NCBI RefSeq assembly: GCF_000195855.1
Contig: NC_002677.1
Span: 2,370,001-2,402,000 of the forward strand
Origin: Mycobacterium leprae TN
GTDB taxonomy: Bacteria > Actinomycetota > Actinomycetes > Mycobacteriales > Mycobacteriaceae
Direction: 5' to 3'
DNA length: 32,000 nucleotides
This document shows, one piece after another, positions 9,901 to 32,000 of this stretch (position 1 is the first letter of the stretch; each line of letters opens with the position of its first letter). Below the pieces are notes generated by a model, which was not told where the DNA came from, did no database searches, and saw nothing but the letters and a program-made list of their open reading frames with translations. A program made the position numbers and the translations under genes.

Positions 9901-10048
9901 AGAAACTTTCACTAGCTTGTCCGACTGCTTACTCTTCGCATGAGCAAAATGCAACCGATTTTTCATCAAGGAGGTATGGATCGTGACGGCGAGAGATGCT
10001 CAAAGATGTGGACCAAAAACAGTAAGTAAATGAGGAGAAAAAGAATCA

Positions 10049-10918: not shown

Positions 10919-11466
10919 GCGCCGAGTTGGCCCCTTCTCTGCAGAACGCGGCGGAATCCACAAACACCTTTCCTATGGCAGAAGATTTGCTTGGCAGCAT
11001 ACTGGAACCCTACTCTTACAAGGGATGCCGCTACCTCATTGACGCACAGTACAGAGCCAGCCCTGATTCGGTCTTCGCTTATGGCAATTTCGGGATTGAA
11101 GAGTCCGCTTACATTCGAGGTACAGGCCACTTCAATGCGGTGGAGCTGATGCTGTGTTTCAATCAGTTAGGTTACAGCGCGTACGCTCAAAGTGTCGTCA
11201 ACAAGGATATTTCCGCACTTCGAGGTTGGTCAATCGCAGATTATTGCAGGAACCAGCTTTCCGGCATATTGATTAAAAACACATCATCGCGATTTAAAAA
11301 GCTGATCAACCCTCAAAAATTTTCTGCACGTTTGCATGTATATGATCTCCGCATCGTCGAACGAACATGGCGCTATCTCCAGTTATCGAACACCATCGAA
11401 TTTTGGGACGATAACGGAGGGTCTGCGATAGGGGAATTCGAGGTCGCGATACTTAACATCCCGTAA
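10915..11466 (+). CDS. fcoT: FcoT-like hotdog thioesterase (Rv0098 / ScoD / MmaD type)
   Basis: 183-aa ORF whose ATG overlaps the upstream stop (ATGA at 10915-10918). The strings YSYKGCRYLIDAQY, GHFNAVELMLCFNQLGYSAY and NPQKFSARL match my memory of M. tuberculosis FcoT almost residue for residue. Confidence 0.85.
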   Translation: MSAELAPSLQNAAESTNTFPMAEDLLGSILEPYSYKGCRYLIDAQYRASPDSVFAYGNFGIEESAYIRGTGHFNAVELMLCFNQLGYSAYAQSVVNKDISALRGWSIADYCRNQLSGILIKNTSSRFKKLINPQKFSARLHVYDLRIVERTWRYLQLSNTIEFWDDNGGSAIGEFEVAILNIP

Positions 11467-11495
11467 TTTACTTGTAGGAGATTCGCTTTACAGCT

Positions 11496-13094
11496 ATGTC
11501 GCACTTACCGCCTACAGTCCTGGAACGGATACTGAAGCAGGCACACGAGCGTCCGGAGGCAATCGCCTTGCGTCGCAGCGACGGGACAAGCGAGCTGCGG
11601 TACGGTCAGCTTGTTGCCGAAGTCAATGGGCTTGCCGCGCATCTTAGTGCTCAGTCGGTTTCTCAAAGATCCCGGGTTCTCGTCATTTCGGACAACGGTC
11701 CCGAGACATACCTGTCGGTGCTGGCTTGCGCGAAGCTCGGAGCGATCGCAGTCATGGTGGACGGCAATCTTCCGCCCGCAACCATCAGTCGTTTCAGCGA
11801 AATCTGTGACCCCAGTGCGGTCCTTGTCGCGCGAGAGTGCAGAATAGACTCTTCCTCGCTGCCGGAAATACTACACTCAATACCGGCCATAACGGTCAAT
11901 ACCACCGCTGATGCAACGTATTCCGCTTGCTCGTTGGATATAGATTATTTAGCCGGTAACCTAAACTACGGCACCGATGACCCGTTGGCGATGACCTTCA
12001 CCAGCGGTACAACCGGCGAGCCAAAGGCCGTGCTGCTACCCAATCGCACCTTCTTTGCTATTCCAGACATTTTACGGGAAAAAGGTCTGGCCTGGATCGA
12101 TTGGGTCGTCAACGAAACCACCTACTCACCTCTGTCGGCGACGCATATCGGCGGCCTCTGGTGGATACTCAACTGTTTAATGCATGGAGGGTTATGTATC
12201 ACCGGCGGTGAGCACACGTCGTCGTTAACGGAGGTTCTTAACGCGAATAAAGTCGCAACAACATGCCTAGTTCCAACCCTTCTTTCGAAACTGGTTTACG
12301 AACTGAAGTTCGGCGATGTGGTGACTCCGCCGTTGCGACTAATTGTTTACGGTGGTTCGCGGGTAATTGCAGCTGATGTGCGATTTATTGAAGCTGCGGG
12401 TGTGCGCACCGCACAGTTCTACGGTTTGAGCGAAACGGGCTGCACCGCCTTGTGTTTACCAACCGATAATGGATCAATCTCCAAAATCGAGGCTGGCGCT
12501 GTTGGACGTCCATACCCTGGTGTGGAAGTGTATCTGGCAGATCCAAATGGTGGCGGACCCACTGTCGCAGACACTGCTTCTTCCGCATCCTTCGGCACGC
12601 TGTGGATTAAATCACCAGCAAACATGTTAGGGTACTGGAATAATCCGGAACGCACCCGAGAAATTCTAGTTGACGGGTGGGTGAACACCGGCGACCTTGT
12701 GGAGCGACGCGAGGACGGTTTCTTCTATATCAAAGGAAGATCCTCGGAGATGATCGTCTCCGGTGGAGTCAACATTGTGCCCGATGAGGTTGATCGCATC
12801 GCCGAAAGCGTTTCGGGCGTTGGTGAGGCCGCATGCTACGAAATACCCGATGCGCATTTCGGAGCGCTAGTCGGTTTGGCCGTAATCCCATCGGCAGAGC
12901 TGAACGAGTCAACAGCGATCGAGCTCAAACGAAGGATTGCGGCTCGTTATCGGCGTGAGTCGGAATCGATGGCGCGCCCGTCTAAGATCGTGATCGTTGC
13001 GGATATTCCTCGCACGCAGTCCGGCAAAGTCATCCGTGCAACACTAGCAGCAGCGCTGAACGGAGAGCAACTCGGAATGGTCGTTCGTGACTGA
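11496..13094 (+). CDS. fadD10: Fatty acyl-AMP ligase FadD10 (Rv0099 / ScoC type)
   Basis: 532-aa ORF with AGGAG upstream. Adenylate-forming motifs FTSGTTGEPKAV, YGLSETG, GDLVERREDGFFYIKGRSSEMI and PRTQSGKV. Collinear with M. tuberculosis FadD10. Confidence 0.9.
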   Translation: MSHLPPTVLERILKQAHERPEAIALRRSDGTSELRYGQLVAEVNGLAAHLSAQSVSQRSRVLVISDNGPETYLSVLACAKLGAIAVMVDGNLPPATISRFSEICDPSAVLVARECRIDSSSLPEILHSIPAITVNTTADATYSACSLDIDYLAGNLNYGTDDPLAMTFTSGTTGEPKAVLLPNRTFFAIPDILREKGLAWIDWVVNETTYSPLSATHIGGLWWILNCLMHGGLCITGGEHTSSLTEVLNANKVATTCLVPTLLSKLVYELKFGDVVTPPLRLIVYGGSRVIAADVRFIEAAGVRTAQFYGLSETGCTALCLPTDNGSISKIEAGAVGRPYPGVEVYLADPNGGGPTVADTASSASFGTLWIKSPANMLGYWNNPERTREILVDGWVNTGDLVERREDGFFYIKGRSSEMIVSGGVNIVPDEVDRIAESVSGVGEAACYEIPDAHFGALVGLAVIPSAELNESTAIELKRRIAARYRRESESMARPSKIVIVADIPRTQSGKVIRATLAAALNGEQLGMVVRD

Positions 13095-13323
13095 GACAGC
13101 ACGGGAAAGGATTCTCACGGCTGTCTGTGAGGTGTTGTACATAGCAGAATCAGATTTGGTTGACGGCGATGAAACCGATCTTCGCGACCTCGGGCTAGAC
13201 TCTGTTCGGTTCACGCTCTTAATGAAGCAACTCGGTCTGAGCCAAGAAGCTGAGATGCAATCCAAATTGATGGACAATTTTTCGATTGCAAACTGGGTTC
13301 GCCAGCTGGAGAGTTCTACGTGA
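13087..13323 (+). CDS. Acyl carrier protein (Rv0100 / ScoB type)
   Basis: 78-aa ORF. GTG start at 13087 overlaps the fadD10 stop by 8 nt. The phosphopantetheine-site text is LRDLGLDSVRF (GLDS). Confidence 0.8.
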   Translation: MTETARERILTAVCEVLYIAESDLVDGDETDLRDLGLDSVRFTLLMKQLGLSQEAEMQSKLMDNFSIANWVRQLESST

Positions 13324-16300
13324 CGGCGCCAAACACACGTCGCGTCGATCGTGTTCCCTTGAGTCGATCTCAGCAGAACATTTACAACGGAATGTTGCAG
13401 GACAACGATCCCGCTTTGTATTTTATCGGTAAAAGCTATCGATTCCACCAGCTGGAGCTGTCGGTGTTCCTGGCGGCTCTGGAAGCAACGATCCTCAAAA
13501 ACCCTGGGCAACTTTGCGTTCTTGAGGCGCCCTCGACAGAGGGTGACTATCCGGATCTCGTGCCGAGGCTGCAGTTCGGCGACATCGTGCGCGTGCGGTC
13601 CGACGAACAGCCGCAGACAGACAGTCGTGACTACGACCTTATGCACGCCTGGTCTCCTGACATCCTCGCCAAGCCACTCGTGCGGTACACCGTGCGGACC
13701 GACAAGAACGGCTTTGTGGCACGTCTCGATGTCTTCACCCATCACATACTGGTTGATGGCGGCGCGATTAGGATCATTGAGGAAAATTTGGCACATCACC
13801 TTGACACCGATAATCGACTCGAGATCCCTTGTATCCGACAAGCTCTGGACAAACTTGCAGAAGCACACCGTCGTGAGGCGACCAAGGTGGAGGAATCGCT
13901 ACAGCGTCTGGCCAATGTCGTGCAACGTGAGCTAGCCGACGAAGTGCGTAACGGTGGGTATGGTCAAGTCTCAAACGACGCCCCCGGGAACGCTGCCCGG
14001 GGAGTGCTTCACGAATCAATGATAATCTGCGGTAAGGCATTTGATAATATTATCGCCTTGTCAGAGACTAAACAGGTGCCACTTAACATATTGGTGGCCA
14101 CGGCGGCAGTAGCAGTGGACGCTAGCCTTAGGCAGAGCACCGAGGGCCTGCTGGTTCACGCTGTGGACAACCGCTTCGGAGATCCCTATCTGGACGTTGC
14201 TACATGCCTGGTCAATTCGGTTGCACACTCGATCCGTTTTCCTCCATTTGCGTCGGTGCAAGATGTCGTCCGAACACTTGACCGGTCCTACGTCAAGGCA
14301 ATTAGACTCCGCTGGCTTCGCGAGGAATATTACCGACGAATATATTTGGCGCTCAACCAGACATCTCACATTGAGGCTTTGACGCTCAATTTCATACGCG
14401 AGCCATGCGCGCCCGGCCTTCGCCCTTTCTTGTCGGAAGTACCGACGGTGACGGATATCGGTCCGGTCGAGGGCATGACCGTGGCTTGTGTTCTGAACGA
14501 AGACGAGCGCACACTTGATCTGTCGATCTGGAACAGAGTAGATCTGCCCCAGGGAAAGTCATGTACCCGTGTCGCAAAACGAATCGCTGCAGCGTTGGAA
14601 TTGATGGCAGCGGCGTGGGATCAGCCGATCGCCATGATTGTCAACGAATGGTTTGGGATCAGTTCAGACGGTGCCCTCTGCCTAGGTAATGAAGTTACCC
14701 AGACAACGCGACCACTGGCTCCGGCATGGTTTCTGGACCCTGGGGGAAGCGTTCACCTGACTGTTGACAAACGTCGCTACGTCCATCCATGGATTGCCTG
14801 GCTGGTAAGGGGCAGCGTCGTGCCAGGTGACGTGCTGGTGTTCACTGACGACAACACGGACAAGACCATCGACCTCTTGATCGCGTGCCATCTTGCGGGC
14901 TGCGGCTACAGTGTCTGTGACACTGTAGCCGAGGTTCCCTTGCGGGCGAAGGCGATTACCGACCACGGTGGTGGTGTCTCTGCCCGCGTGATCGATGTGG
15001 CTGCTACCCAGCTCGCAGTGACCCCGGATAACGAGCAAAGCAAGCTCGCTGACAAGCTTATTAAGCAAGCAGCACAAGATATTTCACTAGCAGACAAAAC
15101 CGCGTACATCATGCCGACATCAGGTTCAACCGGGCAGCCCAAACTCGTCCAAGTTTCACACGGGTCGCTTGCGCTCTTTTGTGACGCGGTGAGAAACGCA
15201 TATGGGTGGGGAGCACACGACACCATACTCCAGTGCGCGCCATTGACATCGGACATCAGTGTCGAGGAGATCTTTGGTGGAGCGATTTGTGGATCGAAGT
15301 TGGTCCGATCCACCGCCATGAAAACTGGTGATCTAGCGGAACTCGCACGAGATATCTTCGTGCAGAGGGCAACAGTCATCGACCTACCGACCGCAGTGTG
15401 GCATTTGCTGTGCGACCACAGCGACGCGATTGACGAGATCAACCGTTCTTGCCTTCGACAGATCGTCATTGGGGGTGAAGCCGTTCGTCCCTGCGCTGTC
15501 GACAAGTGGATTGATTCCGGTGCTTCACAAGGTATTTCACTTATGTCGACCTATGGACCGACAGAGACTACGGTCGTTGTCACGTATTTGCCGATCGTCT
15601 GCGCTCCGATGACCGTCGAGAGTGACGCTCGCCTCAGGCTGGGCTGGCCGATAGTGCCCAACACGGTGTTCATCGCCTTCGGCGAACTCGTTATCGTTGG
15701 TGATTTGGTCTCTGTTGGCTATCTCGGGATCGATAGCCGCAACTTCGGCACTGTGACCACCACGGACGGTTCGTGCCGTCGCGCGTTTGCTACTGCCGAC
15801 TGTGTGATCCTCGATGACGAGGGTTTTCCGGTGTTCTCCGGACGCAAAGACGCCGTCGTCAAAATCTCCGGCAAGCGTGTCGACACCGCCGAGTTAATTC
15901 GGCGTATCTCCACGGACCCTAACGTCTCCGATGTTGCTGTCGAAGTTTACAACGGTCGTCTCGGAGTGTGGTTCGAGACGAAGCTGACCCGCGAAGGCGT
16001 CGACGATGCTGCGGCAGCGACACGGAGCAGGCTAATTCTTGCGAGCTTGGGAGTGTCCTCGTTTTTCGTGGTAGGCGTGCCGTGTATTCCGCGGAAGCCT
16101 AACGGGAAAATTGACCGCGACAACCTGCTGGTGATGCCCCAGCTTGTCGACTCTGTACAAAACTATGCCGGGTCGGGTGAGGGGGCAGCCGGTCTCGCGG
16201 AAATCTGGAGTCGGCACCTAGGCAGGGCTATCCTCCCGGACTCATCGCTACTCGATGAGGGGATCGGCTCGGTGGATCTCATCAGGATACTTCCCGACAC

Positions 16301-17525
16301 TCGTAGACATCTGGGTCGGCACCTCTCGCTTCTGGATCTAATCAGCGCCGATAACGCCGCCAACCTGACTGCCGCGCAGACAGCCAATGTATGGATGGAC
16401 GTCGGCACCGCCGCCGAGATAGAACGTGATCTTGCTTCACTGTGCAGGCAACGAAACGCTACGGAGTTCAGCGTCAAACAGACCCGGAATAGCCACCAAA
16501 AACAGGCGATCGTCGTGCTGGGCGCGTCGGGAATTTTGGGCACTGGCTTTGCCCAAGCAGTCCTCGATCTAAGACAGTCAGGAGTGTTGTGTCCCGAGGT
16601 GGTCTTGGCTACGAGGGCGAGACTCCCCGAAGGCGATCCATGGACAGCGCTGCAAGGCGTTGATGGGGTTCGGATCGAACGTATCTCTTTTGAGAATGGC
16701 CCTGGAGAGCTGGAGGCACTAATACGTGACACTGACGCCGGAACCCTGGTGAACGGTGTCGGCAATACCAACATGCTAGTGCCATACCGTGAACTGCGGC
16801 TGGCCAACGTAGAGCTGGTTTCCGCGATAGTCGATATATGCGCGAGTTATAGTACCAGGTTGGTACATTTGTCGTCATTCGTCGTCAATGCGGATGTCAC
16901 TGTGCCTCAGGTCACCGATCCCCGTGAAACGCCTTATCCGTATGCGGCATCCAAGTCACTCGCGGAGCTAGTCGTTGCCGGATCACCATCTGCGCTCGAT
17001 TTCACCATCGTGCGCCTGCCCCGGGTACTTGGCGAAGACTATCAATTACGCAATTCCTCTGACATTCTACTCTCGATTGTTGATGCCTGTATTGCGTTGC
17101 GCGCCTACCCTTCCGCAACAGTGACGGAAGAAGTCACTACCGGCCGAGCCGCGGCGAAGGCGATCTTGGGCGTGGTGTCGGCGTTAGCTAGATCGGGTCA
17201 GCTGGGGAGCGGAATTTCCGTGGTACGTGGCGAGGCGGTGGCATACGCGGATTTTCTCAGTGAGTTCGCTAGCGATGAACTCAATATGGCGGAGTGGAAG
17301 TATCGACTGGATCAAAGCGACTGGGCGAAGAGAAATCCACGAAGGTGGTCGGTGATCGATGCGTGGTTCACCTTGGGTATGATGTTCGAGATGCGATCCT
17401 ACGCAGAATATCCGACCATGGCCCTCGGCGTCGAGTCCGTCGCCGAGCTTGCCGCGCCACCAGAGTCGATTCGAGCCCTACTAGCGCACGGATGTTCACA
17501 GCCACTGAAATATACTGGCAGATAG
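13320..17525 (+). CDS. nrp: Non-ribosomal peptide synthetase, single module C-A-T-R (Rv0101/nrp orthologue; MmaA-like architecture)
   Basis: 1401-aa ORF. GTG start overlaps the ACP stop (GTGA at 13320-13323). Motifs: HHILVDG (aa 141-147), YIMPTSGSTGQPK (A3), STYGPTETT (A5), GRKDAVVKISGKRV (A8), PRKPNGKIDR (A10), carrier GIGS (Ser984), GASGILG (aa 1068-1074), and Y1208-x3-K1212. Confidence 0.9.
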   Translation: MTAPNTRRVDRVPLSRSQQNIYNGMLQDNDPALYFIGKSYRFHQLELSVFLAALEATILKNPGQLCVLEAPSTEGDYPDLVPRLQFGDIVRVRSDEQPQTDSRDYDLMHAWSPDILAKPLVRYTVRTDKNGFVARLDVFTHHILVDGGAIRIIEENLAHHLDTDNRLEIPCIRQALDKLAEAHRREATKVEESLQRLANVVQRELADEVRNGGYGQVSNDAPGNAARGVLHESMIICGKAFDNIIALSETKQVPLNILVATAAVAVDASLRQSTEGLLVHAVDNRFGDPYLDVATCLVNSVAHSIRFPPFASVQDVVRTLDRSYVKAIRLRWLREEYYRRIYLALNQTSHIEALTLNFIREPCAPGLRPFLSEVPTVTDIGPVEGMTVACVLNEDERTLDLSIWNRVDLPQGKSCTRVAKRIAAALELMAAAWDQPIAMIVNEWFGISSDGALCLGNEVTQTTRPLAPAWFLDPGGSVHLTVDKRRYVHPWIAWLVRGSVVPGDVLVFTDDNTDKTIDLLIACHLAGCGYSVCDTVAEVPLRAKAITDHGGGVSARVIDVAATQLAVTPDNEQSKLADKLIKQAAQDISLADKTAYIMPTSGSTGQPKLVQVSHGSLALFCDAVRNAYGWGAHDTILQCAPLTSDISVEEIFGGAICGSKLVRSTAMKTGDLAELARDIFVQRATVIDLPTAVWHLLCDHSDAIDEINRSCLRQIVIGGEAVRPCAVDKWIDSGASQGISLMSTYGPTETTVVVTYLPIVCAPMTVESDARLRLGWPIVPNTVFIAFGELVIVGDLVSVGYLGIDSRNFGTVTTTDGSCRRAFATADCVILDDEGFPVFSGRKDAVVKISGKRVDTAELIRRISTDPNVSDVAVEVYNGRLGVWFETKLTREGVDDAAAATRSRLILASLGVSSFFVVGVPCIPRKPNGKIDRDNLLVMPQLVDSVQNYAGSGEGAAGLAEIWSRHLGRAILPDSSLLDEGIGSVDLIRILPDTRRHLGRHLSLLDLISADNAANLTAAQTANVWMDVGTAAEIERDLASLCRQRNATEFSVKQTRNSHQKQAIVVLGASGILGTGFAQAVLDLRQSGVLCPEVVLATRARLPEGDPWTALQGVDGVRIERISFENGPGELEALIRDTDAGTLVNGVGNTNMLVPYRELRLANVELVSAIVDICASYSTRLVHLSSFVVNADVTVPQVTDPRETPYPYAASKSLAELVVAGSPSALDFTIVRLPRVLGEDYQLRNSSDILLSIVDACIALRAYPSATVTEEVTTGRAAAKAILGVVSALARSGQLGSGISVVRGEAVAYADFLSEFASDELNMAEWKYRLDQSDWAKRNPRRWSVIDAWFTLGMMFEMRSYAEYPTMALGVESVAELAAPPESIRALLAHGCSQPLKYTGR
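13347..14639 (+). other. nrp: nrp condensation (C) domain
   Basis: HHxxxDG is encoded at 13740-13760. The boundaries are approximate and were set by eye. Confidence 0.65.
14757..16124 (+). other. nrp: nrp adenylation (A) domain
   Basis: Core motifs A2 (HLAGCGYSVCD), A3, A5, A6 (GELVIVGDLVSVGYLG), A8 and A10, read in order. The boundaries are approximate. Confidence 0.7.
16182..16379 (+). other. nrp: nrp thiolation (T/PCP) domain
   Basis: LDEGIGSVDLIRIL, with the Ser codon at 16269-16271. The motif deviates from the canonical GGDS/GGHS. Confidence 0.55.
16506..17522 (+). other. nrp: nrp terminal reductase (R, SDR-type) domain
   Basis: Rossmann text VVLGASGILGTGF and the catalytic YAASK. No TE or second C domain follows. 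Confidence 0.7.
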
Positions 17526-17531
17526 CAACTG

Positions 17532-18164
17532 CTAAACGTGAAACAGCAGAACACCGAACATAATAGCCATCCCGGTCGACATCATAGCCTGACCTGAGGG
17601 ATGCAGCGAACAATAGCGACTGAAGCCTGCATTCCTTCGCGATGTCGCGAAAGAACGGTACGTCCAGAAGACTGTCGCGATACAGAAGAACGCGAACCAG
17701 AGCCAGTTTATAATACTGATCCATCCAGGTATTCCGCTTGCCGGCACCACCGTTGTAGTCATGTCCACGCCCAGCATCGACGTATGGGGCGATGTATGAT
17801 GGCCAGTGGCCCAATGGTCGTGAAGATGACTGTCCATGATGACGTACATCCAGACCATAGCCAGCATCATGAGAGCCGGATATGCATATGCCGCCCGTTC
17901 AGCGATCCTTCGGGACGAAACGGTGGCCAAGATCACGAACCACGCCCCAACTAGCCCGCAAAACACCACGGTCCCTGTCGTTGGTAGCTGAGCACCCCGC
18001 GGCCAGGCCATCACTGCCATCGCGATTGCCATCGCAAAATGCAATCCATTGCTCGGAACCAGTGTCCACGGCCGGCGGCAGGCCAAACACGCGAAGCCAC
18101 ATTCGGCAGCGCTCAGCACGAACAGCCCGGTGACAACCCAACGCAGCAGTAAGTCATCAATCAT
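17532..18164 (-). CDS. Small polytopic membrane protein with a His-rich loop; function unknown (possibly DUF5134-like)
   Basis: 210-aa ORF with about 5-6 hydrophobic segments. The loop MDSHLHDHWATGHHTSPHTSM (nt ~17760-17837) has 6 His in 15 residues. The gene is convergent with nrp (6-nt gap) and divergent from the CopD/CtaG-like gene. Confidence 0.65.
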   Translation of the reverse strand: MIDDLLLRWVVTGLFVLSAAECGFACLACRRPWTLVPSNGLHFAMAIAMAVMAWPRGAQLPTTGTVVFCGLVGAWFVILATVSSRRIAERAAYAYPALMMLAMVWMYVIMDSHLHDHWATGHHTSPHTSMLGVDMTTTVVPASGIPGWISIINWLWFAFFCIATVFWTYRSFATSRRNAGFSRYCSLHPSGQAMMSTGMAIMFGVLLFHV

Positions 18165-18276
18165 GCGAGGTGTCGCCGCTCGGAGGGAGGCATCTGGCTA
18201 CTGTAGGTTGGCGTTGACCAACCGACGCTTGCCGGCCACCTACGTGGTCTGCTGTTAGCATCCGTAAGCTCAAGCA
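18165..18276. promoter_or_regulatory. Divergent intergenic region, presumed to hold promoters and operators for both membrane genes
   Basis: 112-bp gap between two divergent starts. It contains GGTTGG-N6-CCAACC (18206-18223) with TTGACC embedded. No confident -10/-35 pair could be assigned. Confidence 0.3.
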
Positions 18277-20256
18277 ATGCAGACTGACGAGCCGACCGGA
18301 ACAGCGACGTCAGCTATACGGATTCCCCCGCTGATCTCCTTGAGAACCACACTGATGGTGGCTGGCCTGCTGGGTAACGTGGTCGCCGTTGCCGCCTACG
18401 GACTGTTTTCGCGAACTGAGCGTTATGGCGCTGTCGGCAATCCGGATCCCGGAAGTTTCATCGGCGTTGCCGAACCCGTGGGGTACTTCGGTGCGTCGCT
18501 GTCAAGTGCGCTGTGTCTTGGAGCATTGATTTACTTCGTGATGATGGTCTGGCCGCAAGCAGACGGCTTGATCGATGCTCAGGCTTTTCGGATTCACCTT
18601 GCTGAAGAGCGTGTTTCGATCGGCTGGCTGGCGTTTGCACTGACGATGGTGGTGGTTCAGGCTGCTAACGACTCCGGTGTAACACCGGCTGAGCTTCGAA
18701 CTGGCGCAGCACTATTCAATGCCATTACAACTTCGGAGACCTCACGGGCTTGGATCGTTGTGACGATCTGTGCGTTGCTTGTTACGTTGACGCTGCGAGT
18801 CATCATCCGATACTCCGACCACTTTGTGCTGCTGATCCCCGCAGTGATTGGTGTTATCGCGACCGCGGTGACCGGTAACGCAGGGCAGGGACCGGACCAT
18901 GACTACGCCACCAGCGCTGTGATTGTCTTCGCACTCGCCATTGCCGCATTGAGCGGGCTCAAGATTACCGCTGCGCTGACGGAGGTGACGCCAAGCCGCG
19001 CTGTGCTGATTGTGCAAGTTGTGTGTGGGGTGCTCGCGCTAGCGTATGGAGCCGAGCTGGTCTATCTACTTAGCCCGGGCGCGGCGATGATCGATTCGGA
19101 CTTCGGTCGGCTCGGTCTGGTGGCCGGAGTGCTGGTGACCTTGGTGTGCTTCTCTGACTGCTGGGCGTTGGTCATGGGTCGGCCGCACTCGGATCACCGG
19201 ACACGTCTTACCGCACTGGCCATGATGGCCGTCACGGCGGCGACGGCGGCAATGTCTGTTCAAACTGCGCCGCGATTCCTCACCCACAGGTTCACAGCCT
19301 GGGACGTTTTTCTGGGCTACGAGCTGCCGCAGCCACCTAACATTGTTAGGTTTTTCACCGTGTGGCGGTTCGACAGCCTCATTGGAGCTACTGCCATCGT
19401 CCTCGGGATCGGATATGTAGCGGGCTTTGTCCGTGTGCGGCGTGCCGGCAACACTTGGCCAGTGGGGAGACTGGTGGCGTGGTTGACTGGGTGTGTCGCA
19501 CTGGTATTCACCAGTAGCTCAGGCGTGCGAACGTACGGTTCGGCGATGTTCAGCGTGCACATGGCCGAACATATGACGTTGAATATGTTCATCCCGGTCC
19601 TCCTTGTTCTGGGCGGTCCGGTCACCTTGGCGCTTCGTGCTTTGTCCGCGGCTGGTGATGGACAACAACCCGGACCACGTGAATGGCTAACATGGCTAAT
19701 GCACTCCTCCGTTACGGCCTTTCTTTCCCACCCGGTCACAAACTTCATCCTGTTCGTGGGGTCGCCGTACATCGTTTACTTCACACCGCTGTTCGATACC
19801 CTGGTTCGCTATCACTGGGGACACGAATTCATGGCCATCCACTTCTTGCTGGTAGGATATATCTTCTACTGGGCAATAATTGGTATCGATCCAGGGCCCC
19901 GACGACTCCCCTATCTGGCACGAATTGGATTGTTGTTTGCAGTGATGCCATTCCACGCCTTCTTCGGGATAGCGTTAATGACAATGACATCGGCAATCAG
20001 TGCCGAATTCTACCGCTCCGTCAATCTGCCCTGGCTGGCAAGCATTGACGCTGACCAGCATATAGGTGGAGCGATCGCCTGGAGCGCAACGGAATTACCT
20101 GTAATCATCGTCATAGTGGCGCTGATGGCCCAGTGGGCACGCCAGGACCATAGAGTCGCCGTCCGTGAAGACCGGCATGCGGACAGCACCTACGCCGATG
20201 ACGACCTAAATGCATACAACGCGATGCTACGAGAGTTGTCCCGGATGCGTCGATAG
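18277..20256 (+). CDS. Large integral membrane protein: CopD-like N-terminal half fused to a caa3-type CtaG (cytochrome oxidase assembly) like C-terminal half; Rv0102 orthologue
   Basis: 659-aa ORF that is hydrophobic throughout. The CtaG-family text [28 protein letters not shown] is encoded at ~19555-19640. Later strings are [18 protein letters not shown] and MPFHAFFG. The size and position (between nrp and ctpB) match Rv0102. Confidence 0.8.
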
Positions 20257-20299: not shown

Positions 20300-21100
20300 T
20301 GTGGTAGTCATTGTCGAGGATGTGACTGTCCTGGTCAGGTCCAAGATTGCGGATTAAAACGTTGCAGGCGTATTGCCCTCCACGAAGTAGTGGGAAAAAT
20401 CCTCAAGGTAACATGTATAATCGAAGGCAGGTACCAGGCGGTAGGCTAACACTTTGGCGCCGAGGTCAGCGAACTGACGTGACGTTAACTAAAGGTCTTT
20501 CTCTGGCAGCTGCGTTAAAAACATGTTATGGGCACATCAATAACCTGAACTGCGGGGTTTCGATCTCCTCCGGCGTTTGTAGCATCTCGTATCACAATCA
20601 GGTAGCCGCCAGCGTAGGCGTAGTAGCGGGCTCAGTGCAGAACCTTGTCCAACCCGCTGTTCAACCAGGCATCAATGCGACCAAGTTATCAAGAAACTCG
20701 GCACTACTACGCGCGGCGGTCATGGCTTGAATCTTGGTGGCGTGATCTTCAGCGGAGGTCAATTCGATTCTACCCATTGCACCGCGCAACTTAGAGAAGA
20801 CCGTATCATCCAGATAGATCACGGCCACGCCACTGGCTCCGTACTCTCGCACAGTACGCGCACCATTGTTGCGGTTGCCGTAGCCGATGTCAGCATCGGC
20901 GATCACTGGCACCTGCACCGTCCGAAAACCGGACCGCTGAAAATTCTGGCAGCCAAACCATCATGGAAACCGGTTACCATCAGCAGATCCTCACACACCA
21001 ACAGCGACTTCAAACTTTCCACCGCATAACGACAATTAGCATGCCCTGGCATGACCTGACCGAAGTAATTACAGAAGCTCATATTCGAAGTCTTTACTTC
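20300..21100 (-). pseudogene. PEP mutase / isocitrate-lyase-superfamily gene relic (methylisocitrate-lyase-like)
   Basis: Minus-strand fragments in different frames: LKSLLVCEDLLMVTGFHDGLAARIF, then RSGFRTVQVPVIADADIGYGN..TVREYGASGVAVIYLDD, then IDAWLNSGLDKVLHWARYYAYAGGYLIVI. The segment expected between AGF and PVxADxDxGYG is missing. The boundaries are approximate. Confidence 0.6.
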
Positions 21101-21316: not shown

Positions 21317-23569
21317 TCAGTCTGACGTTTGGGAAAGACCAAAATTACTTAGCCGCAAGCTGTTTGACACCACGAAAAACGACGAAAACGCCATGGCAGC
21401 ACCGGCGATCAAAGGATTGAGCAGACCACTGGAGGCGATGGGGATTGCCGCAACGTTGTAGCCGAACGCCCAGATCATATTAATCCGAATTGTCCGCATG
21501 GTAGCACGTGCCAGATCCAATGCCACCGGAACAACACCCAGGCTGTCGCGGACCAGAATGAGATCGGCGGCGCCGATCGCGACATCAGTACCGCGCCCCA
21601 TCGCCAAGCCTAAATCGGCACATGCCAAAGCGGGGCCGTCGTTGATGCCGTCTCCGACCATCGCGACGGTGTGCCCCTGATCACGCAGTCGTTGAATAAC
21701 GTCGACCTTAGCTTCGGGCAGCATATCGGCGATAACGGTGTCGATTCCTACCTGTGCTGCAACCGCACGCGCGGCGGCCTGATTATCACCGGTGAGCAAA
21801 ATTGTGTGCAACCCGCGGCTGCACAGTGCTGAGATGGCGTCGGCTGCTGAATCCTTGACGGTGTCGGCGATCGCGACAGCTCCACATGCAACACCATCTA
21901 CCGATACGAAAACTACTGTCTCTCCCCGTGATTCGCCTTCTCTCCGTGCGGATTCGAGAACGACGTCGCATGGCGCATTCCGGGTTACCCAGGACGGCTT
22001 GCCAATTTTGACATGGTGCTCAGCAACAACTCCCGATACACCGCATCCGGCAAACGCGACGAAGTCGGCAACCGGACGTGGATCTGCATAAGCGGCCACA
22101 ATAGCCGTTGCCACCGAATGTTCAGAGGCCGCTTCGACTGCGGAGGCGAGCGCCAGAACTTCCCCAGAACACCACCCGCCGGTTGACGTTACCGTGCTAA
22201 CGCTCAGCTGCCCAAGTGTCAACGTGCCGGTCTTGTCGAAGACCACGGTGTCAATCGCGTTGATAGTTTCCAGCGCTCGGTAACCCTTGATGAAAATCCC
22301 CAATTGAGCGCCTCTGCCGGAGGCAACCATCATAGCGGTGGGGGTAGCAAGCCCGAGCGTACATGGACATGCAATCACCAAGACCCCGAGCACCACAGAG
22401 AAAGCGCGATCTGGGCTGGCTCCAGCCAACAGCCAAGAGGCACCCGCCAATCCTGCGATGACAAAGACCATCGGCACGAACACGGCCGCGATGCGATCGG
22501 CGAGGTGCTGCACACGGGCCTTCTGTACCTGTGCGTCCTCGACGAGACGGACCATCGCCGCAAATTGAGTATCGCCACCGACTGCGGTAGCCTCGATCAC
22601 TAAGCGGCCGTCAAGCACTGTGGTGCCGCCCACCACGGTGCTTGCCGGCGACGCGTGTACTGGTCTGGCCTCGCCAGTGATAGCGCTCATATCGATCGTC
22701 GCAGTGCCATCGATGACCACACCGTCGGCAGTAATGGTCTCACCGGGCCTTACCAGAAAGTGCTGTTGCTTTTTGAGCTCTCCAGCCGGTATAGTAAGTT
22801 CTGCTCCATTGGGCAACAAGACCTCCACATTTTTGGCACCCCGAGCAGCGAGCGCTCGTAATGCACTACCAGCCTTGGACTTGGCGCGAGCCTCAAAGAA
22901 CCGACCCGCAAGAACAAAGACGGTGACTCCCGCAGCAACCTCAAAGTAGATCGAGTCGCTGTGCAGGATAGCCTGCCAAATTCCATGAGTCTGCCGTGGC
23001 TCTTTGTCGACGAAGATCGTCGACAAAGACCAACCGGTGGCCGCTAGGATACCAGCCGAAATCAACGTTTCCATGGATGCTGCCCGATAACGCGCGTTGC
23101 GCAACGCAACACGGTGGAAAGGCCACGCAGCCCATGTCACGATCGGGGCTGCTAACGCGGTAAGCAGGTATCCCCAGCCGGGGAATCTGTTCGTCGGCAC
23201 AATCGCAAACATGGTCGACAAATCGGCCAACGGCACGAACAGCAGCGCAGCGACAATGAGCCGCCGCAGCAGGTTGCGGGCATAGTCGGCGTCAGGATCA
23301 ATTTCTTCGACGGCAGACTCCGCGTGCGCAGTAGCACGATATCCAGCCTGTTCAATCACCTGACGCAGCTCATCAACCGCCACGTCGACGGCATCGATGG
23401 TCGCAACTCGGGTAGCGAAGTTGACTGATGCGCGGACACCGGGAATCTTGTTCAGCTTCGTTTCAACCCGGCTCGCACATGCCGCGCACAGCATGCCTGC
23501 AACATCCAGCTGAATACGTCGCACGGACTCATGATTATTATTAGTGTCCTCCACAAGCGAAGCTGTCAC
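21317..23569 (-). CDS. ctpB: P1B-type (copper-family) cation-transporting ATPase CtpB, with an intact HMA domain
   Basis: 750-aa ORF with a GTG start at 23569. Intact GMLCAAC metal site, plus [25 protein letters not shown] and [12 protein letters not shown]. Paralogous to ctpA over its full length. Confidence 0.92.
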
Positions 23570-23599: not shown

Positions 23600-24400
23600 C
23601 TACTAGCTTACAAGTGCAACCGCAGGCGGCTTTGACAAAGCACCCGCAGTTAGCCGGGCCCGCGGTCCGCGCGTTCCCGCAACCACTCCCGCTGGCGAAG
23701 GACAATGCCGCATCGACGACATGCCCATGACCTGGTACGTAGATGGAATCGAGGCCACCAGTTACGACTAATCGTTCAACGTTGCCGGCCACGCGGCTAC
23801 ATCGGAATCGGCGTCGACTGCGGGGTCGACGGACTCCTCGACCAGATCACCGGTAAAACACCACAACCGCGCCGCTGTCCGCGTCCATGCGAGGTACCAC
23901 CGCAACTAGATCCGAAGTGGTGTGTCCACGGCCCCAATGATGAGCAATGGTCACACTCCGGTCGCCGAAATTGATGACAGCGTCGTAGAGTCCGTGGTGT
24001 GGCGGGAGCATCGCCGCATAGCGGGTCGGTAGTCGACGACAGGTATTCGACCCACCTGAGGTGCACAGTGCATTTCAACTCCGACACAAACAGAATCGCC
24101 TAGGATGTTGTCGAAGTTCTTGTGCGTCAACACAACACGGAAGATCGGACTGCTGACAAGCTGCCAAACGTCGGTGTCGATCGCAGCCGCTTCGGCGAGC
24201 GTGGTGCTCGTGTCGACCAGCACTGCACCGGCATGGCACGCACAGCATCAGCCCGACTGTGATGTCGCAGACGGAAAGAGTCGATATGTCGGGTGTTTCC
24301 GACGTCGTGTACACATCTCGCGGCATCTTGACCAGGCAGCCGTTGTCCACGGAGGCTGGTGGCTGACGAACCGCAGAACCGTCAACACATCTACCAGCTG
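23600..24400 (-). pseudogene. MBL-fold metallo-hydrolase relic
   Basis: Minus-strand fragments across three frames: GAVLVDTSTTLAEAAAI..RVVLTHKNFDNILG (a decayed THxHxDH motif), ..VTIAHHWGRGHTTSDLVAVVP.., ..LDSIYVPGHGHVVDAA. The boundaries are approximate. Confidence 0.55.
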
Positions 24401-24519
24401 ACCGCTGAACTGTCGACGGAGCTAGGTGAATGGTTACATCTGTTAGAAACAGTTTCTGGCAGACAGGACTGGATGTACTCACCGAGACATCAAAGCCTGT
24501 TACGATCCTTAGTAGACCA

Positions 24520-24960
24520 AATTCATGGCGGCTCCGCTGGCGAAGGCGTGGCGGCTGCTAACCGAACCGGTGTTACGAGACTCTAGATGGGCAGCGGGTG
24601 AGGTGGCTACGGCGTTTGGCCACCAATTTACCCTCGACAGAACCGGTTACGGCAAACAACCCTAGCAAAGTGCTTGAAGTGGATCCACCCCACCGCTTTG
24701 TGTACACTTTCACTCCAAGCCTAGACGCTCACCTGGCACCTTGCCACGGAAGGTGCTGATACCAGAAGTATTTCTGAAACAAACGGTACGGGCTTTGATT
24801 TGGATGACAAACGTATGACTACGGCCTTCAAGCGCATGGGCCCTGGGTAGCGCGACGTCGTCCTCTCCCGTCTTGCCGAGGCTGCTTTCGCAGGCCGTTG
24901 CAAGGGCCACTTGGAAAATCAACTGACCGCTGCTTGCTGTACAACGCGACGCGTGTGCAA
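24520..24960 (+). pseudogene. SRPBCC / Aha1-START-like domain protein relic
   Basis: APLAKAWRLLTEPVLRDSRW..GHQFTLDRTGYGKQP*, then VLEVDPPHRFVYTF, then TWHLATEGADTR..GFDLDD..AFKRMGPG*. In-frame stops and frame changes are present. Confidence 0.5.
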
Positions 24961-25003
24961 CGATCACCAGGTGATCCTGCTAGCAGTATCCGGGTAGGAA
25001 ACG

Positions 25004-25930
25004 ATGCTCGCAGTCGCCATCACCAAGCACGGCAATTCATCGGTCTTACAGGTGCCGCAGCGGCCCAATCCACCCCCCCGCCGGGACAGGCCAGCGCGGG
25101 TCACTGTACGTGCCGCTGGAGTAAATTTTGCTAACAACCTCATCCGCATCGGCCTATATACAGACGCAGCAAAACTGCCGTCAGTAGTCGGTTACAAAGT
25201 CGCCAGGTCGGTGTAAGCCATTTAGAGACGGCGTCGATGAAAACCTTGTCGGAGAAAGAGTCTTGGCCGGTACACAATTCGTCGGCTACGCGGAAATCGT
25301 CAACGTTCCGGCGAGCGACACGACACGATAGTGTTCCCCGACGGGGTGAGCTGGCGCATAGGGAGCCAGCGATCCCGGTTAACTACGCGACTGCATAAGC
25401 AGCGCTGCTAACGCTACGAGTCCTGTGTGCCGTTGAGCAAGTACTAATTTCACGCAGCGTCGGGTAGTGTCAGCATCGTGGCCGTTCGACTCACTAAGGT
25501 CGCCAGCGCCGAAGTGCACGGCACCGCGTCGCCAGGAAAGCACCAGAAACTTGCTGAGTTGGATGTGAACCGGGGCGCCATCAACTACCGCCGCAACGAC
25601 TTGATGGAAAGGCCTCAGCCCCTATGATCTTGTTCTCGACGCACTTGGTGACACCTCGCTGCGGCATTCTTATGGATCTGCTGCGCGCTGAAGGAAGGCT
25701 TGTCGGTTATGGGATTTCTGCGATACAGCAGAACGAGAAGCGTTCGCTGCTCAGGGTGGCTCCACACACGTAGTCGATGCTAAAATCGATCATAGAGTGC
25801 TTAATAGGCGGCGTTGTGACCGGGCATGACGGTAGTGACTTGGACTCCATGGCATCCCTCACCACCGAGGTGGTAGCCGCGCATTGGAATAGGAAGATCA
25901 AAGAAGCCTTTGGAGCCAAGGCGATTTTTT
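25004..25930 (+). pseudogene. fadB5: Quinone oxidoreductase (MDR / zeta-crystallin type) relic, fadB5 (Rv1912c)-like
   Basis: MLAVAITKHGNSSVLQVPQRPNPPP..VTVRAAGVNFANNLIRIGLYTDAAKLPSVVGYKVA then stops at 25214. Downstream fragments (RVLAGTQFVGYAEIVNVPASD; GRLVGYGISA) lie in other frames. A C7 tract sits at 25073-25079. Confidence 0.6.
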
Positions 25931-25959
25931 AGTGACCACCAGATTCTGGCGCAATAGAC

Positions 25960-26668
25960 CATAACAAGCAATCACCAGTGGAAACAGATAACATGGCTTG
26001 CATACGGTAAGGAGCAAATGTGATGTACCGTAACATGGTATCTTTGAAATTGGTGACGAATCTGACTACAGTTTCGATGAAACTTTGTTTCATATCGTTT
26101 TTAAGTTGTTCCGTGCTGCTAGCGACTGGCTTCGGTGGGAAAGTGTAAGCAAACACATTTGCGGCGTGCTTACCGGGAGGAGTCAATACCTGTCTCATTC
26201 AACAACTCATGAGAGTGGAGTGCATTCGGTTAACCCATCCAGGACCAAGAGGATCTGCACGAAGGAGGCACGGTGATCACGGCAGGACACATGCAAGAGC
26301 AGTTCCACAGAGGCATGTTCGGGAACCGATGAGCTCGGTCAGAACAACGTCCGGCGCTAGGTTGGACACCACGGTTTAACCTTGGCACGGAATCTGATCC
26401 CGCTGCTGTGGTGCAGTTTCACTACGCCCGAGTGCGATCTGTGCAGTCGTACTCCCGCGCTGTCTACGCCCACGCTCATCGTGTCGTGTGGGGGAAGAAA
26501 GACATCGTGATCCCACTAAGCGCTGGGAGCGCCACCCATGACGCGATTGCTAGATCTCGGCTCGAGATCCTCGAGACTGGCCATATGTTTTTCTTGTCAG
26601 ATCCGTACGGCTTCTTCGCGGTCGTCGAGCAGTTTCTGCAATCGGTGGTGCTGCAACCATCCTCTTGA
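25960..26668 (+). pseudogene. Alpha/beta-hydrolase-fold relic
   Basis: The C-terminal piece (26408-26668) reads VVWGKKDIVIPLSAGSATHDAIARSRLEILETGHMFFLSDPYGFFAVVEQFL, the typical ..W.G..D..P......I......GH....E.P..F......FL pattern. The upstream part is interrupted by stops. Confidence 0.5.
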
Positions 26669-26754
26669 TCGCTGATGCGTTCAAACTTTCAGCTCTCATG
26701 CGCCTGAGTGGCTAGCTCAGCCCAGGATCAGCGGAGAGCCGACGTGAGGATAGC

Positions 26755-27690
26755 GATGCCGCTTAACACCCCTCTTACACAATTCTTCTAGATCGAACAC
26801 CCCGTCCTGCTTGCACCGATGACCGAGGTGTCCGGGGACCGGTTGGCCGCGATCGTGACCGCGGCCGGCGACCTCGGTCTCATCGGCGGAGACTACGGCG
26901 ACGCAAACTGGCTGCAGCACTAATCCGGCGAAGCGCAGCAGGAAAAGGTCGAAATCGGATTTCATCACATGCAGCCTCGCCCTTAACCCTGAGCGCTAAA
27001 CGCGATACTAGCGCGGCAACCAGCAACGCTCCATGTTGTCTTTCACTGATCCAGAGGCATTCGCCGTCCGTATTCACCAAGCTAATATTCCACTCTCATC
27101 TGCCAAGTGCAGACACTCAAGCAGGCACGCTTTGAACACCGAAGCGGACATAGTCATAGCCCAAGGCGGCGATACAGGTTGGCATGAAATAGGAGGTCGT
27201 TCAGCCTTCACCCTGGTGCCCGACGTCGTCGACCTCGTCGCCTAACAGTCGGCCAAAACGCTTGTGTTGGCCACAGGCGGTATCGCCGATGGTCGTGACG
27301 TCAAGACCGCACCGACCTTCGGTGACTATGGTACGCCGGTCGGGAGCCGATTATAATCCAGCACTGAGACGCCGGTTATGCCACAAGCTCAATAGCCAAT
27401 TATCCAGGACAACAGAGAAGACAGTGCCCGGACCTGAGTCTATGGCATTGTGCGGCAACGGAATTTATCCGAAATTACTACGCGCAGCTGGTTATTAACC
27501 CGTTGATCCAAGCATGGCATGGCAATGAGGATGGACTGTTTGGCGTTCCTACCGGAGACGGTGAGCGCCTTTGAGAAAGCGTTCGTCGAGTCAGGACTGC
27601 GATGTCGCCACTTCACTAGTTGGCGAGACTATAGGACTCATTCACGAAGTTCGCACCGCCGCACTGCTGTCGCTAGCTCGCCATAGTTGA
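26755..27690 (+). pseudogene. Nitronate monooxygenase (2-nitropropane dioxygenase) relic
   Basis: MPLNTPLTQFF*IEHPVLLAPMTEVSGDRLAAIVTAAGDLGLIGG. Later pieces are VIAQGGDTGWHEIGGRSAFTLVPDVVDLV, LATGGIADGRDV and VGETIGLIHEVRTAAL. There are multiple stops and frame changes. Confidence 0.6.
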
Positions 27691-28889: not shown

Positions 28890-29450
28890 ATTCTCGATCT
28901 CACGCTTGTGCGTCGCGGTATAGATTGCGTGAACATCGCCATCGGTCGACGAACTGCTAGCCACCACACGGTTGGTGCGCAAACGCCTTGACCCGACCCA
29001 GCCGGTCGCAACGTCGTCCTCGAGTGCGCGCGCCGGGCGATGCAAGCCCCCACCGCAAGCAACGCACAAGATCGGCGCTGGCTGGTGATCACCGATGCCG
29101 ACAAACGTGCGGCGATCGCCGAGATCTAGGGCAGTGTCGACGCTGAGTACATCACTACAACCGCTAAAACCTTCTCAGATCAGCAGACCTGACGCGAGTA
29201 TAGCAACATGGTGAGTCTGACCAAAACGCTGGACCACGTTTCCGTACACATCATCCCTTGCCTGCAGTGCCGTTTCCATGACGCCGATCCGCTGTTCGAG
29301 CGTGGCGGGATCACCTATTGGGACAGCTGGATAGAAAGCTGATGCAATCCAGCACAGTGCGATTCCACATCTACGCATCCACGAAGAAAAGTGGGCAGGT
29401 ACTGCGTCCACCGGCGCCGCCAAACGCACCACGGCCACGGGTCCTCAAGT
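28890..29450 (+). pseudogene. Nitroreductase-family relic
   Basis: TTRLVRKRLDPTQPV in one frame, then VVLECARRAMQAPTASNAQDRRWLVITDADKRAAIAEI* in another, then HVSVHIIPCLQ. The extent downstream is unclear. Confidence 0.45.
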
Positions 29451-30343: not shown

Positions 30344-30389
30344 TCTGCTCCAGAAAAGTCTAGAGTCATATCGGTCCGTGTTGTCCCCG

Positions 30390-30840: not shown

Positions 30841-30842
30841 GA

Positions 30843-32000
<1,158 letters not shown>

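Follow-up and report, generated by a model that had tools for sequence, protein, structure and literature searches.

Components of the copper supply to the respiratory oxidase have been described for mycobacteria and their relatives. Chalkophores, diisonitriles encoded by nrp, protect the bcc:aa3 oxidase under copper starvation, and whether the complex of chalkophore and copper belongs to the oxidase assembly system is stated to be unknown (PMC12140626), while SigC, which drives ctpB and ppe1-nrp in Mycobacterium tuberculosis, prevents copper starvation (PMC7924339). Knock-outs of the Rv0102 homologues in Mycobacterium smegmatis and Mycobacterium marinum have an approximately four-fold lower intracellular copper content, along with copper tolerance (PMC11413399), and CtiP of Corynebacterium glutamicum is required for an active bc1-aa3 supercomplex (Morosov et al. 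2018, as related in PMC9145763). The csoR-pacL3-ctpV-Rv0970 operon is co-transcribed and copper-induced (PMC4801387), and its last gene, Rv0970, is described as being of unknown function (PMC13043812). Here we consider a gene in Mycobacterium leprae TN (contig NC_002677.1 of GCF_000195855.1, positions 2,370,001 to 2,402,000 of the forward strand; this whole stretch of 32,000 nucleotides is the window) that encodes a protein of 210 amino acids (aa) belonging to the DUF5134 family. The gene is divergent from the one for a 659-aa orthologue of Rv0102/CtiP, and the pair is positioned between nrp and ctpB. A preliminary description of this DNA presented the pair as a candidate module for copper hand-off from the chalkophore made next door, and stated that no such functional link had been described. 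The latter statement is outdated, as the chalkophore-aa3 link, the copper role of Rv0102, and the role of CtiP have all been published. Thus the copper role of the large protein and the connection between chalkophore and oxidase are known, and it is the DUF5134 family that is uncharacterised. We propose, tentatively and with slightly less than even confidence, that DUF5134 proteins may be Cu(I) acceptors or conduits at the outer face of the membrane, feeding the CtiP/aa3 route.

As to the protein itself, the family assignment suggested in the preliminary description holds, the match to Pfam DUF5134 (PF17197) covering residues 35-205 with 146.3 bits (cut-off 29, E 8.9e-43); the sequence is 100% identical to an entry named 'probable integral membrane protein [Mycobacterium leprae]'. 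That description had also named no characterised function for this protein, and indeed DUF5134 occurs in only one paper of the literature searched, in a co-expression list. The AlphaFold2 (AF2) model contains helices at residues 5-28, 35-53, 62-82, 87-120, 147-177, and 188-209, for a total of six transmembrane (TM) segments. Topology and loop statistics were obtained from an alignment of 120 homologues, and conservation within the TM segments from 218 full-length members, including representatives of distant clusters. The mean content of Lys plus Arg is 2.2, 2.2, and 3.7 in loops 1-2, 3-4, and 5-6 (sum 8.1), versus 0, 0.4, and 1.1 in the N-terminus, loop 2-3, and loop 4-5 (sum 1.5), and loop 4-5 is acidic, with a mean of 3.2 Asp plus Glu versus 1.1 Lys plus Arg. 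The positive-inside rule predicts an outward orientation for the TM4-TM5 loop and for the two termini, which supports the exposed position originally ascribed to the His-rich loop. This loop includes the motif MDSHLHDHWATGHHTSPHTSM (residues 110-130), with six His in 15 residues (113, 115, 117, 122, 123, and 127) between M110 and M130, just as first described. It is not the His, however, that is conserved. The number of loop His is six in M. leprae, five in Mycobacterium haemophilum, eight in a third relative, zero in Rv0970, and zero to two in most members, whereas 5 to 17 Met are found in the displayed loop region in 120/120 homologues, in repeats of the MSMPGMDM type. Judging from the alignment, the family-wide trait is a Met-rich loop with a predicted outward orientation, and the His-richness is confined to the M. 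leprae/M. haemophilum lineage.

Met thioethers are classic ligands of Cu(I), and Met/His ligands running through the bilayer are a hallmark of Cu(I) pathways such as those of Ctr1, CcoA, and CusA. In DUF5134 the ladder [H/Q]-x2-M-x3-[M/T]-x2-M is repeated in TM2, TM4, and TM6, with the spacing of 0/+3/+7/+10 in all three helices, which places these residues on one helical face. Conservation is high in TM2 (H42 in 205, M45 in 211, M49 in 215, and M52 in 215 of the 218 members) and in TM4 (H96 in 194, M99 in 198, M100 in 211, and M106 in 213, with position 103 occupied by Met or Thr), and the values for TM6 are 159 for Q192, 184 for M195, and 188 for M199. The mean number of Met per segment is 3.1 in TM2, 4.2 in TM4, 3.3 in TM6, and 4.9 in the loop, versus 0.2 in TM1, 0.75 in TM3, and 0.04 in TM5, with Met making up 8.5% of the protein. 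The M. leprae protein possesses complete ladders in TM2 (H42, M45, M49, M52) and TM6 (Q192, M195, M199, M202), and in TM4 it maintains M99, M100, M103, and M106 while the near-invariant His96 is replaced by Pro. The three helix hairpins align with each other in register by hhalign (E 3.5e-5, 2.6e-4, and 0.014), suggesting a triplicated hairpin, although the compositional bias of TM segments makes this result only suggestive. Profile searches of the PDB and Foldseek searches with DUF5134 returned no match, no fusion to CtaG, PepSY_TM, or an ATPase is present among the 150 best representatives (the longest is 284 aa), and homology between DUF5134 and CtiP was considered and rejected (hhalign probability 0.1%). 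The reading of DUF5134 as a Cu(I) acceptor or conduit follows from the ligand properties of Met and from the Met-rich nature of both the loop and the ladders.

The genomic contexts of the family point in the same direction. Scanning one genome per GTDB species resulted in 80 loci and, with loci fetched by protein identity, 85 were analysed, along with neighbourhoods of 10 kb. In 49 of the 85 the gene is divergent from that for a CtiP homologue, usually with 60-320 bp between it and the end of the tblastn match; the pairing with a CtaG-domain protein is thus not an accident of M. leprae, and the association with copper genes, on which the hand-off proposal depended, is strong. Within 10 kb of these 49 pairs, a ctpB-like ATPase is encoded in 37 cases, an extracytoplasmic function (ECF) sigma factor, reaching the NCBIfam equivalog cut-off for SigC, in 28, and a homologue of nrp in nine, while a zf-HC2 anti-sigma-like gene, convergent with DUF5134, is found directly downstream of it in 34. 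These pairs have ctpB, sigC, and the anti-sigma gene nearby far more often than nrp, and a chalkophore-specific hand-off is therefore not necessary for the pair to work. Slow-growing species carry the nrp operon as an insertion that separates the anti-sigma gene from DUF5134. A second context is presented by 21 loci in which DUF5134 adjoins a gene for a ctpV-like ATPase: in 19 the order is csoR-DUF1490(pacL3)-ctpV-DUF5134, with DUF5134 last, Rv0970 at the end of the csoR-pacL3-ctpV operon of M. tuberculosis being of this type, and in two it is convergent with ctpV. In seven loci the gene is located between Lactamase_B and isocitrate lyase 2 (ICL2) genes, with copper genes absent from the immediate neighbourhood, and the remaining eight comprise four loci from outside Mycobacterium and four mycobacterial ones in miscellaneous contexts. 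In a rough, unbootstrapped neighbour-joining tree, the ctpV-linked genes form one clade, and the genes of M. leprae and M. haemophilum fall among those of ctiP-linked slow-growing mycobacteria. One Mycolicibacterium metagenome-assembled genome encodes a NicO-type nickel/cobalt permease after DUF5134 instead of copper genes (L016:6736-7896, +).

Outside Mycobacterium, DUF5134 is translationally coupled to, and located downstream of, a PepSY_TM gene (4-11 bp overlap) in 4/4 distant members examined, and at one locus the order is CtaG-fusion/sigC/HMA-ATPase, followed by PepSY_TM and then DUF5134. In six mycobacterial loci the same PepSY_TM gene is found between ctiP and DUF5134, and in two further ones, which have no ctiP in the vicinity, it immediately precedes DUF5134. 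The coupled protein shows a match to FoxB, a ferrisiderophore reductase that depends on haem (7ABW, E 2.5e-4). Another PepSY_TM protein, CrpH of Bordetella, supports haem-copper oxidases, and a role as periplasmic copper reductase has been proposed for it (PMC13038864). DUF5134 is thus found in three independent copper contexts: the CsoR operon, the SigC/ctpB/ctiP island, and next to PepSY_TM beside an HMA-domain ATPase. Gene order defines the second of these as a conserved island, predicted to function in copper acquisition, of the composition sigC, ctpB, ctiP, (pepSY_TM-)duf5134, and the anti-sigma gene. No earlier description of this association of DUF5134 with ctiP, ctpB, sigC, PepSY_TM, and the Rv0093c-type anti-sigma gene seems to exist, and the literature searched contains no mention of a divergent DUF5134 partner of CtiP.

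The anti-sigma-like protein in the window (Rv0093c type) is 44-69% identical to the products of the genes downstream of DUF5134 in L025, L052, L054, and L069; a zf-HC2 gene is also found just downstream of DUF5134 at L068 and L078, and it is often preceded by a SigC-type motif. The Rv0093c-type protein is, on this evidence, a candidate for the cognate anti-SigC factor, a role not indicated in the titles and abstracts of the Rv0093c literature searched.

The regulatory signals separate the branches of the family. The sigC-ctpB intergenic regions of 28 loci share the motif GGGAAC-N17-CGAC(C/T), also present upstream of ctpB in M. tuberculosis. A position weight matrix (PWM) was built from the ctpB sites only and applied to approximately 160 nt upstream, the threshold (9.7) being the 99th percentile of background. 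The motif was detected upstream of DUF5134 in 31 of 43 ctiP-linked loci, upstream of PepSY_TM-DUF5134 in four of six ctiP-linked loci, and in five of six such loci with no ctiP nearby (two mycobacterial and four from outside Mycobacterium), for a total of 40/55, versus none of 18 ctpV-linked and none of 13 other loci (0/31). In two more ctiP-linked loci, a strict motif is located just beyond the 160-nt window. The ctiP-linked branch is thus predicted to belong to the SigC copper-starvation regulon, and the two branches are predicted to be oppositely regulated, this one by SigC (starvation) and the Rv0970 branch by CsoR (copper excess). The ctiP gene itself has no SigC-type motif; an invariant -10-like element, TAAGCT/TAGACT, is found 6 nt before its start (TAAGCT at 18265-18270 in M. 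leprae), and CGTAAGCTC/CGTAGACTC is invariant in eight species in the alignment of the divergent control region. In the 112-bp region of M. leprae, a simple sigma-70 scan found nothing. The palindrome GGTTGG-N6-CCAACC at 18206-18223 is partly kept in Mycobacterium lepromatosis and M. haemophilum; as a conserved operator it was rejected, not being kept as such in M. haemophilum. The 11-mer GTGGCCGGCAA, shared by the region upstream of DUF5134 and one far upstream of ctpB and partly conserved, was likewise discarded, as it is probably due to chance after multiple comparisons. A DUF4395 gene is found just past the anti-sigma gene in L052 (11489-11974, +) and neighbouring loci, together with more SigC-type motifs, on both strands; judged by these motifs, the SigC regulon of fast-growing mycobacteria may be larger than ctpB, PepSY_TM, and DUF5134.

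One explanation to be weighed against these contexts is that DUF5134 is not a copper protein at all, serving instead another soft metal, the buffering of oxidants, or a PepSY_TM redox complex as its structural subunit, the linkage to copper being indirect. The seven loci between Lactamase_B and ICL2 with no metal genes nearby, the nickel/cobalt permease downstream at L016, and the fact that no experiment tying any DUF5134 member to copper was found in the literature searched would fit this explanation. We consider it most improbable, given the three independent copper contexts, the SigC-type promoter common to DUF5134 and ctpB, and the nature of the membrane ligands, Met and His with neither Cys nor carboxylates, as is typical of the Cu(I) pathways of Ctr1, CcoA, and CusA.

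The 659-aa protein is 69% identical to Rv0102 of M. tuberculosis over 100% of its length, and the nrp-Rv0102-ctpB synteny is shared between the two species, so that the equivalence of positions pointed out in the preliminary description is borne out. It matches Pfam Caa3_CtaG (PF09678) at residues 379-623 with 288.7 bits (cut-off 27.7, E 3.9e-86), as do 18/18 of its homologues, in all of which H428, M429, H432, M433, N436, and M437 are invariant. Its AF2 model has approximately 16 long helices, in an N-terminal multi-helix domain followed by the C-terminal Caa3_CtaG. By full-length similarity, the number of helices, the C-terminal CtaG domain, and the synteny with ctpB, the protein is a member of the CtiP/Rv0102 orthologous group. 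With the Bacillus CtaG equivalog model (NCBIfam TIGR02737) it scores 34.3 bits, far under the cut-off of 279.35, and is thus a domain-level relative, and not an equivalog, of the Bacillus subtilis CtaG. As to its naming as a CopD/CtaG-like fusion, the CtaG part stands but the CopD part does not: no match to Pfam CopD (PF05425) was obtained at E<=10 with residues 1-378 or with any of the 18 full-length homologues, and the CopD label for Rv0102/CtiP rests on other tools (PMC11413399, PMC9145763). Sequence searches identified no solved relative of CtiP. With the N-terminal bundle (residues 1-378; 18277-19410, +), modelled by AF2 with a pLDDT of 80-93 and containing an invariant loop at residues 200-210, Foldseek produced weak matches to PsrC (NrfD family) and CydB, both quinone-site subunits (E 0.04-0.7, TM-score to target approximately 0.45-0.55), and a PsrC/CydB-like fold would be a lead only.

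How might the two proteins act together? If DUF5134 proteins are Cu(I) acceptors or conduits, copper would arrive outside the membrane, free or released by the chalkophore, and would be reduced to Cu(I) by the PepSY_TM reductase where this is present; the Met/His loop of DUF5134 would capture Cu(I), which the Met ladder would pass on, either to CtiP or to the cytoplasm; and CtpB and the CtaG domain of CtiP would metallate the aa3 oxidase, the sole terminal oxidase of M. leprae. DUF5134 would improve this route without being essential to it. Transfer could run inward to the cytoplasm, sideways to CtiP, or from the exit of an ATPase to DUF5134. A more specific proposal, which we consider unlikely, arises from analogy: that DUF5134 is a bacterial Cu(I) channel in which three tandem Met-ladder hairpins form a pseudo-threefold pore like that of the Ctr1 trimer. 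With PepSY_TM as a cupric reductase, it would constitute a SigC-controlled system of reductive copper uptake in Actinobacteria, and would supply the inner-membrane step that is missing between copper, whether chalkophore-bound or free, and the metallation of aa3 by CtpB/CtiP.

The last of the directions named above leads to another explanation, in which DUF5134 is a partner of the P1B-type ATPases, CtpV in the csoR branch and CtpB in the sigC branch, taking Cu(I) at their periplasmic exit for periplasmic targets, with the adjacency to ctiP reflecting membership in the ctpB island. It would account for the occurrence of one type of protein under both copper excess (CsoR) and starvation (SigC), and it agrees with the position of ctpV immediately upstream of DUF5134 in 19 loci, sometimes with a 4-bp overlap, with the ctpB-like ATPase within 10 kb in 37/49 ctiP-linked loci, and with the order ATPase, PepSY_TM, DUF5134 in one direction at L091. 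It would also avoid a paradox that the acceptor or conduit reading carries with it, of a Cu(I) importer co-induced with the exporter CtpV in the csoR operon. Still, we consider it rather unlikely, as three PepSY_TM-DUF5134 operons (L085, L086, and L089) have no ATPase within 5 kb, four ctiP-DUF5134 pairs (L056, L057, L062, and L071) have none within 10 kb, and a Met ladder through the whole membrane suggests transmembrane conduction over a dock at the exit side. The full ctpV operon with rv0970 also gave no copper tolerance in M. smegmatis; this is the only functional test of a DUF5134 member found in the literature searched, and it weighs as well against a role of DUF5134 as a Cu(I) acceptor or conduit (PMC13043812). 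A pure role at the exit side fits poorly with both the membrane-spanning ladders and the PepSY_TM operons free of an ATPase.

Besides the paradox and the result with rv0970, a number of observations count against the acceptor or conduit reading, most of them from the evolution of the gene in M. leprae and its relatives. The AF2 model of the protein is only moderate (pLDDT 69, pTM 0.62), and no experimental evidence for the proposed role of any DUF5134 member was found in the literature searched. The protein evolves faster than its neighbours, being 73% identical to that of M. haemophilum versus 85-91% for those; Pro at position 96 is present in only 3/218 members, those of M. leprae, M. haemophilum, and one relative; and the SigC-type motif is absent from the 112-bp region of M. 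leprae (PWM scores of -1.3 and -0.3 versus the threshold of 9.7). In M. lepromatosis, the orthologue is a pseudogene (L050:10001-10620, FJ924): the start codon ATG has become ATA, 12 bp are missing from the TM2 Met motif, and the frame is shifted twice, by 1 bp and by 5 bp. The adjacent ctiP, ctpB, and nrp are intact there. M. tuberculosis has no DUF5134 next to Rv0102 but only a gap of 174 bp. Given the loss in these two species, any role of DUF5134 must be an accessory one, dispensable for CtiP function. The argument that a gene kept in so reduced a genome must be essential was rejected on account of the M. lepromatosis pseudogene.

These same observations could be taken to mean that the M. 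leprae gene is a functionally decaying remnant with a still open reading frame, its His-rich loop being a product of drift. The loss in the sister species, the change of H96 to Pro, the missing SigC motif, and values of dN and dN/dS above those of every other non-biosynthetic gene in the island (dN/dS 0.30 versus 0.15-0.19 for CtpB and CtiP) all favour such decay, and we nevertheless find it improbable. The dN/dS versus M. haemophilum, 0.30 for DUF5134, 0.19 for CtiP, 0.15 for CtpB, and 0.26 for Nrp, is well below one and near that of Nrp, indicative of purifying selection, if somewhat relaxed. The reading frame of 210 codons remains intact where adjacent genes have collapsed, and every ladder Met is kept, along with H42 and Q192. 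Both H96P and the His-rich loop are common to M. haemophilum and a third species, and thus predate genome reduction. The pairing of DUF5134 with ctiP is itself ancestral, as the same order is found in M. haemophilum.

The two genes are indeed intact and divergent, sharing a control region of 112 bp, as the preliminary description had it, and only 6 bp separate the end of the DUF5134 gene from the stop codon of nrp (Table 1). Also intact in the window are ctpA, the anti-sigma gene, the PPE gene and the whole chalkophore cluster, in a gene order identical to that of M. haemophilum, and ctpB, whose product is 91% identical to the M. haemophilum protein. The decayed neighbours are the genes for phosphoenolpyruvate (PEP) mutase, Lactamase_B, and alcohol dehydrogenase. 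The PEP-mutase/ICL-like remnant, recognised by tblastn with the intact M. haemophilum protein, is split into three pieces for which no common reading frame exists. Remnants of Lactamase_B and of a zinc-dependent alcohol dehydrogenase are located at 23653-24235 (-) and 25004-25791 (+), respectively, and, as with the PEP-mutase/ICL-like gene, their counterparts in M. haemophilum are intact. No GH10 remnant is present among the decayed genes of the window, and no open reading frame (ORF) of at least 150 aa is found in its last 8 kb (24000-32000). The G+C content of the window is approximately 56%.

Table 1. Features of the M. leprae window, in window coordinates
Feature	Position	Strand	Basis
DUF5134 gene, 210 aa, start MIDDLLLRW	17532-18164	-	ORF and Pfam PF17197; orthologue within the ctiP-linked subfamily
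Coding sequence of M110-M130, the His-rich part of the TM4-TM5 loop (which spans residues 111-146)	17775-17837	-	Translation
Divergent control region, 112 bp between the two start codons	18165-18276	.	Sequence
Rv0102/CtiP orthologue, 659 aa	18277-20256	+	ORF, Pfam, and identity to Rv0102
Caa3_CtaG domain, residues 379-623	19411-20145	+	Pfam PF09678
CtaG signature of the 659-aa protein, residues 428-448	19558-19620	+	Translation
nrp, single-module non-ribosomal peptide synthetase (Nrp), 1401 aa	13320-17525	+	ORF and Pfam
Chalkophore (isonitrile-lipopeptide) cluster, intact: PPE, TauD-type dioxygenase, FcoT, FadD10, acyl carrier protein, single-module Nrp	8431-17525	+	Pfam
Acyl carrier protein of the chalkophore cluster	13087-13323	+	ORF
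ctpB, copper P1B-type ATPase with N-terminal HMA domain, intact	21317-23569	-	NCBIfam TIGR01511, E 4e-144
ctpA-like P-type ATPase	3427-5727	+	Pfam E1-E2_ATPase and Hydrolase
zf-HC2 anti-sigma-like membrane protein (Rv0093c type)	5705-6478	-	Pfam zf-HC2
Decayed PEP-mutase/ICL-like gene between ctiP and ctpB	20336-21022	-	tblastn
SigC-type promoter motif GGGAAC-N17-CGAC before the PPE-nrp operon	8369-8395	+	Strict pattern; PWM 17.6, >99th percentile of background
SigC-like motif GGAAAC-N17-CGAC upstream of the ctpA-like gene	3260-3286	+	PWM 12.3, >99th percentile of background
Degenerate SigC-like motif GGGAAC-N16-CGGCTAAC upstream of ctpB	23649-23678	-	Motif scan

Two of the promoter motifs deserve comment. 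Based on the SigC-like motif upstream of the ctpA-like gene, ctpA may be part of the SigC regulon of M. leprae. The degenerate motif of ctpB is followed downstream by a palindrome of 34 nt (23618-23651, -) and then by a -10-like TAAGCT. The palindrome is near-perfect (AACTGCGGGTGCTTTG T CAAAGCCGCCTGCGGTT), is kept in M. haemophilum and M. lepromatosis, and may be an operator or an RNA hairpin. At approximately 2688-3191 (-), a pseudogene of an ECF sigma factor contains three in-frame stops; it is 34% identical to a SigC-like probe and probably represents an ECF sigma factor other than SigC.

Overall, the path of copper across the mycobacterial inner membrane to bcc:aa3 is an open question, and DUF5134 presents a concrete candidate for one of its steps. 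M. leprae encodes no cydAB and thus no cytochrome bd (PMC6355801), which implies full dependence on the copper oxidase, and the retention of a copper-supply island makes sense where aa3 is the only terminal oxidase. An anonymous family is now a genetically addressable candidate, with defined ligand residues, two branches predicted to be oppositely regulated, and a predicted reductase partner, and the conserved island draws attention to Rv0093c as well, as a candidate anti-SigC factor. Should the proposal hold, bacterial copper acquisition would gain a new component, and the respiration of pathogenic mycobacteria possibly a vulnerable point.

The known system closest to the small protein is Rv0970 of M. 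tuberculosis, also a DUF5134 protein of 210 aa, 51% identical, with Met ladders and a Met-rich loop, and also in a copper context, co-transcribed with a Cu(I) P1B-type ATPase and copper-induced (PMC4801387). It is, however, a paralogue from the ctpV-linked clade and not an orthologue, possesses no loop His, and is under the control of CsoR, in response to copper excess, the SigC-type motif being found in 0/18 loci of the Rv0970 type. The large protein compares with CtiP of C. glutamicum (Cg2699), Rv0102, MSMEG_4702, and MMAR_0267 in its approximately 16 helices and the C-terminal Caa3_CtaG, the likeness to Cg2699 being one of architecture; the similarity to CopD named in the literature is not detectable with Pfam CopD. 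As a pair, the two proteins resemble YcnJ of B. subtilis (CopC-CopD-YtkA) and the CopC/CopD pair, in which an extracytoplasmic capture element is combined with a polytopic importer and which support haem-copper oxidases under copper starvation (PMC13344008). By this analogy, DUF5134 could occupy a CopC-like capture role beside CtiP, although CopC is soluble, has a beta-sandwich fold, and binds Cu(II), while DUF5134 is an all-helical membrane protein with Met of the Cu(I) type, and the two have no relationship in sequence or fold. As to eukaryotic Ctr1 with its Fre/Steap metalloreductases and the bacterial CcoA, neither PDB sequence searches nor Foldseek indicate homology or a shared fold of DUF5134 with Ctr1, in which three 3-TM subunits form a homotrimer, and CcoA belongs to the major facilitator superfamily, with 12 TM segments, so that the analogy is in motif logic only. 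Within this logic, the likeness is in an extracellular Met/His-rich capture motif and in the motifs of the MxxxM type in TM helices, and the three Met-bearing helices of DUF5134 could line one pore. The coupling of DUF5134 in one operon with a PepSY_TM haem-reductase-like protein mirrors, in turn, the uptake of copper by a reductase and a Cu(I) permease.

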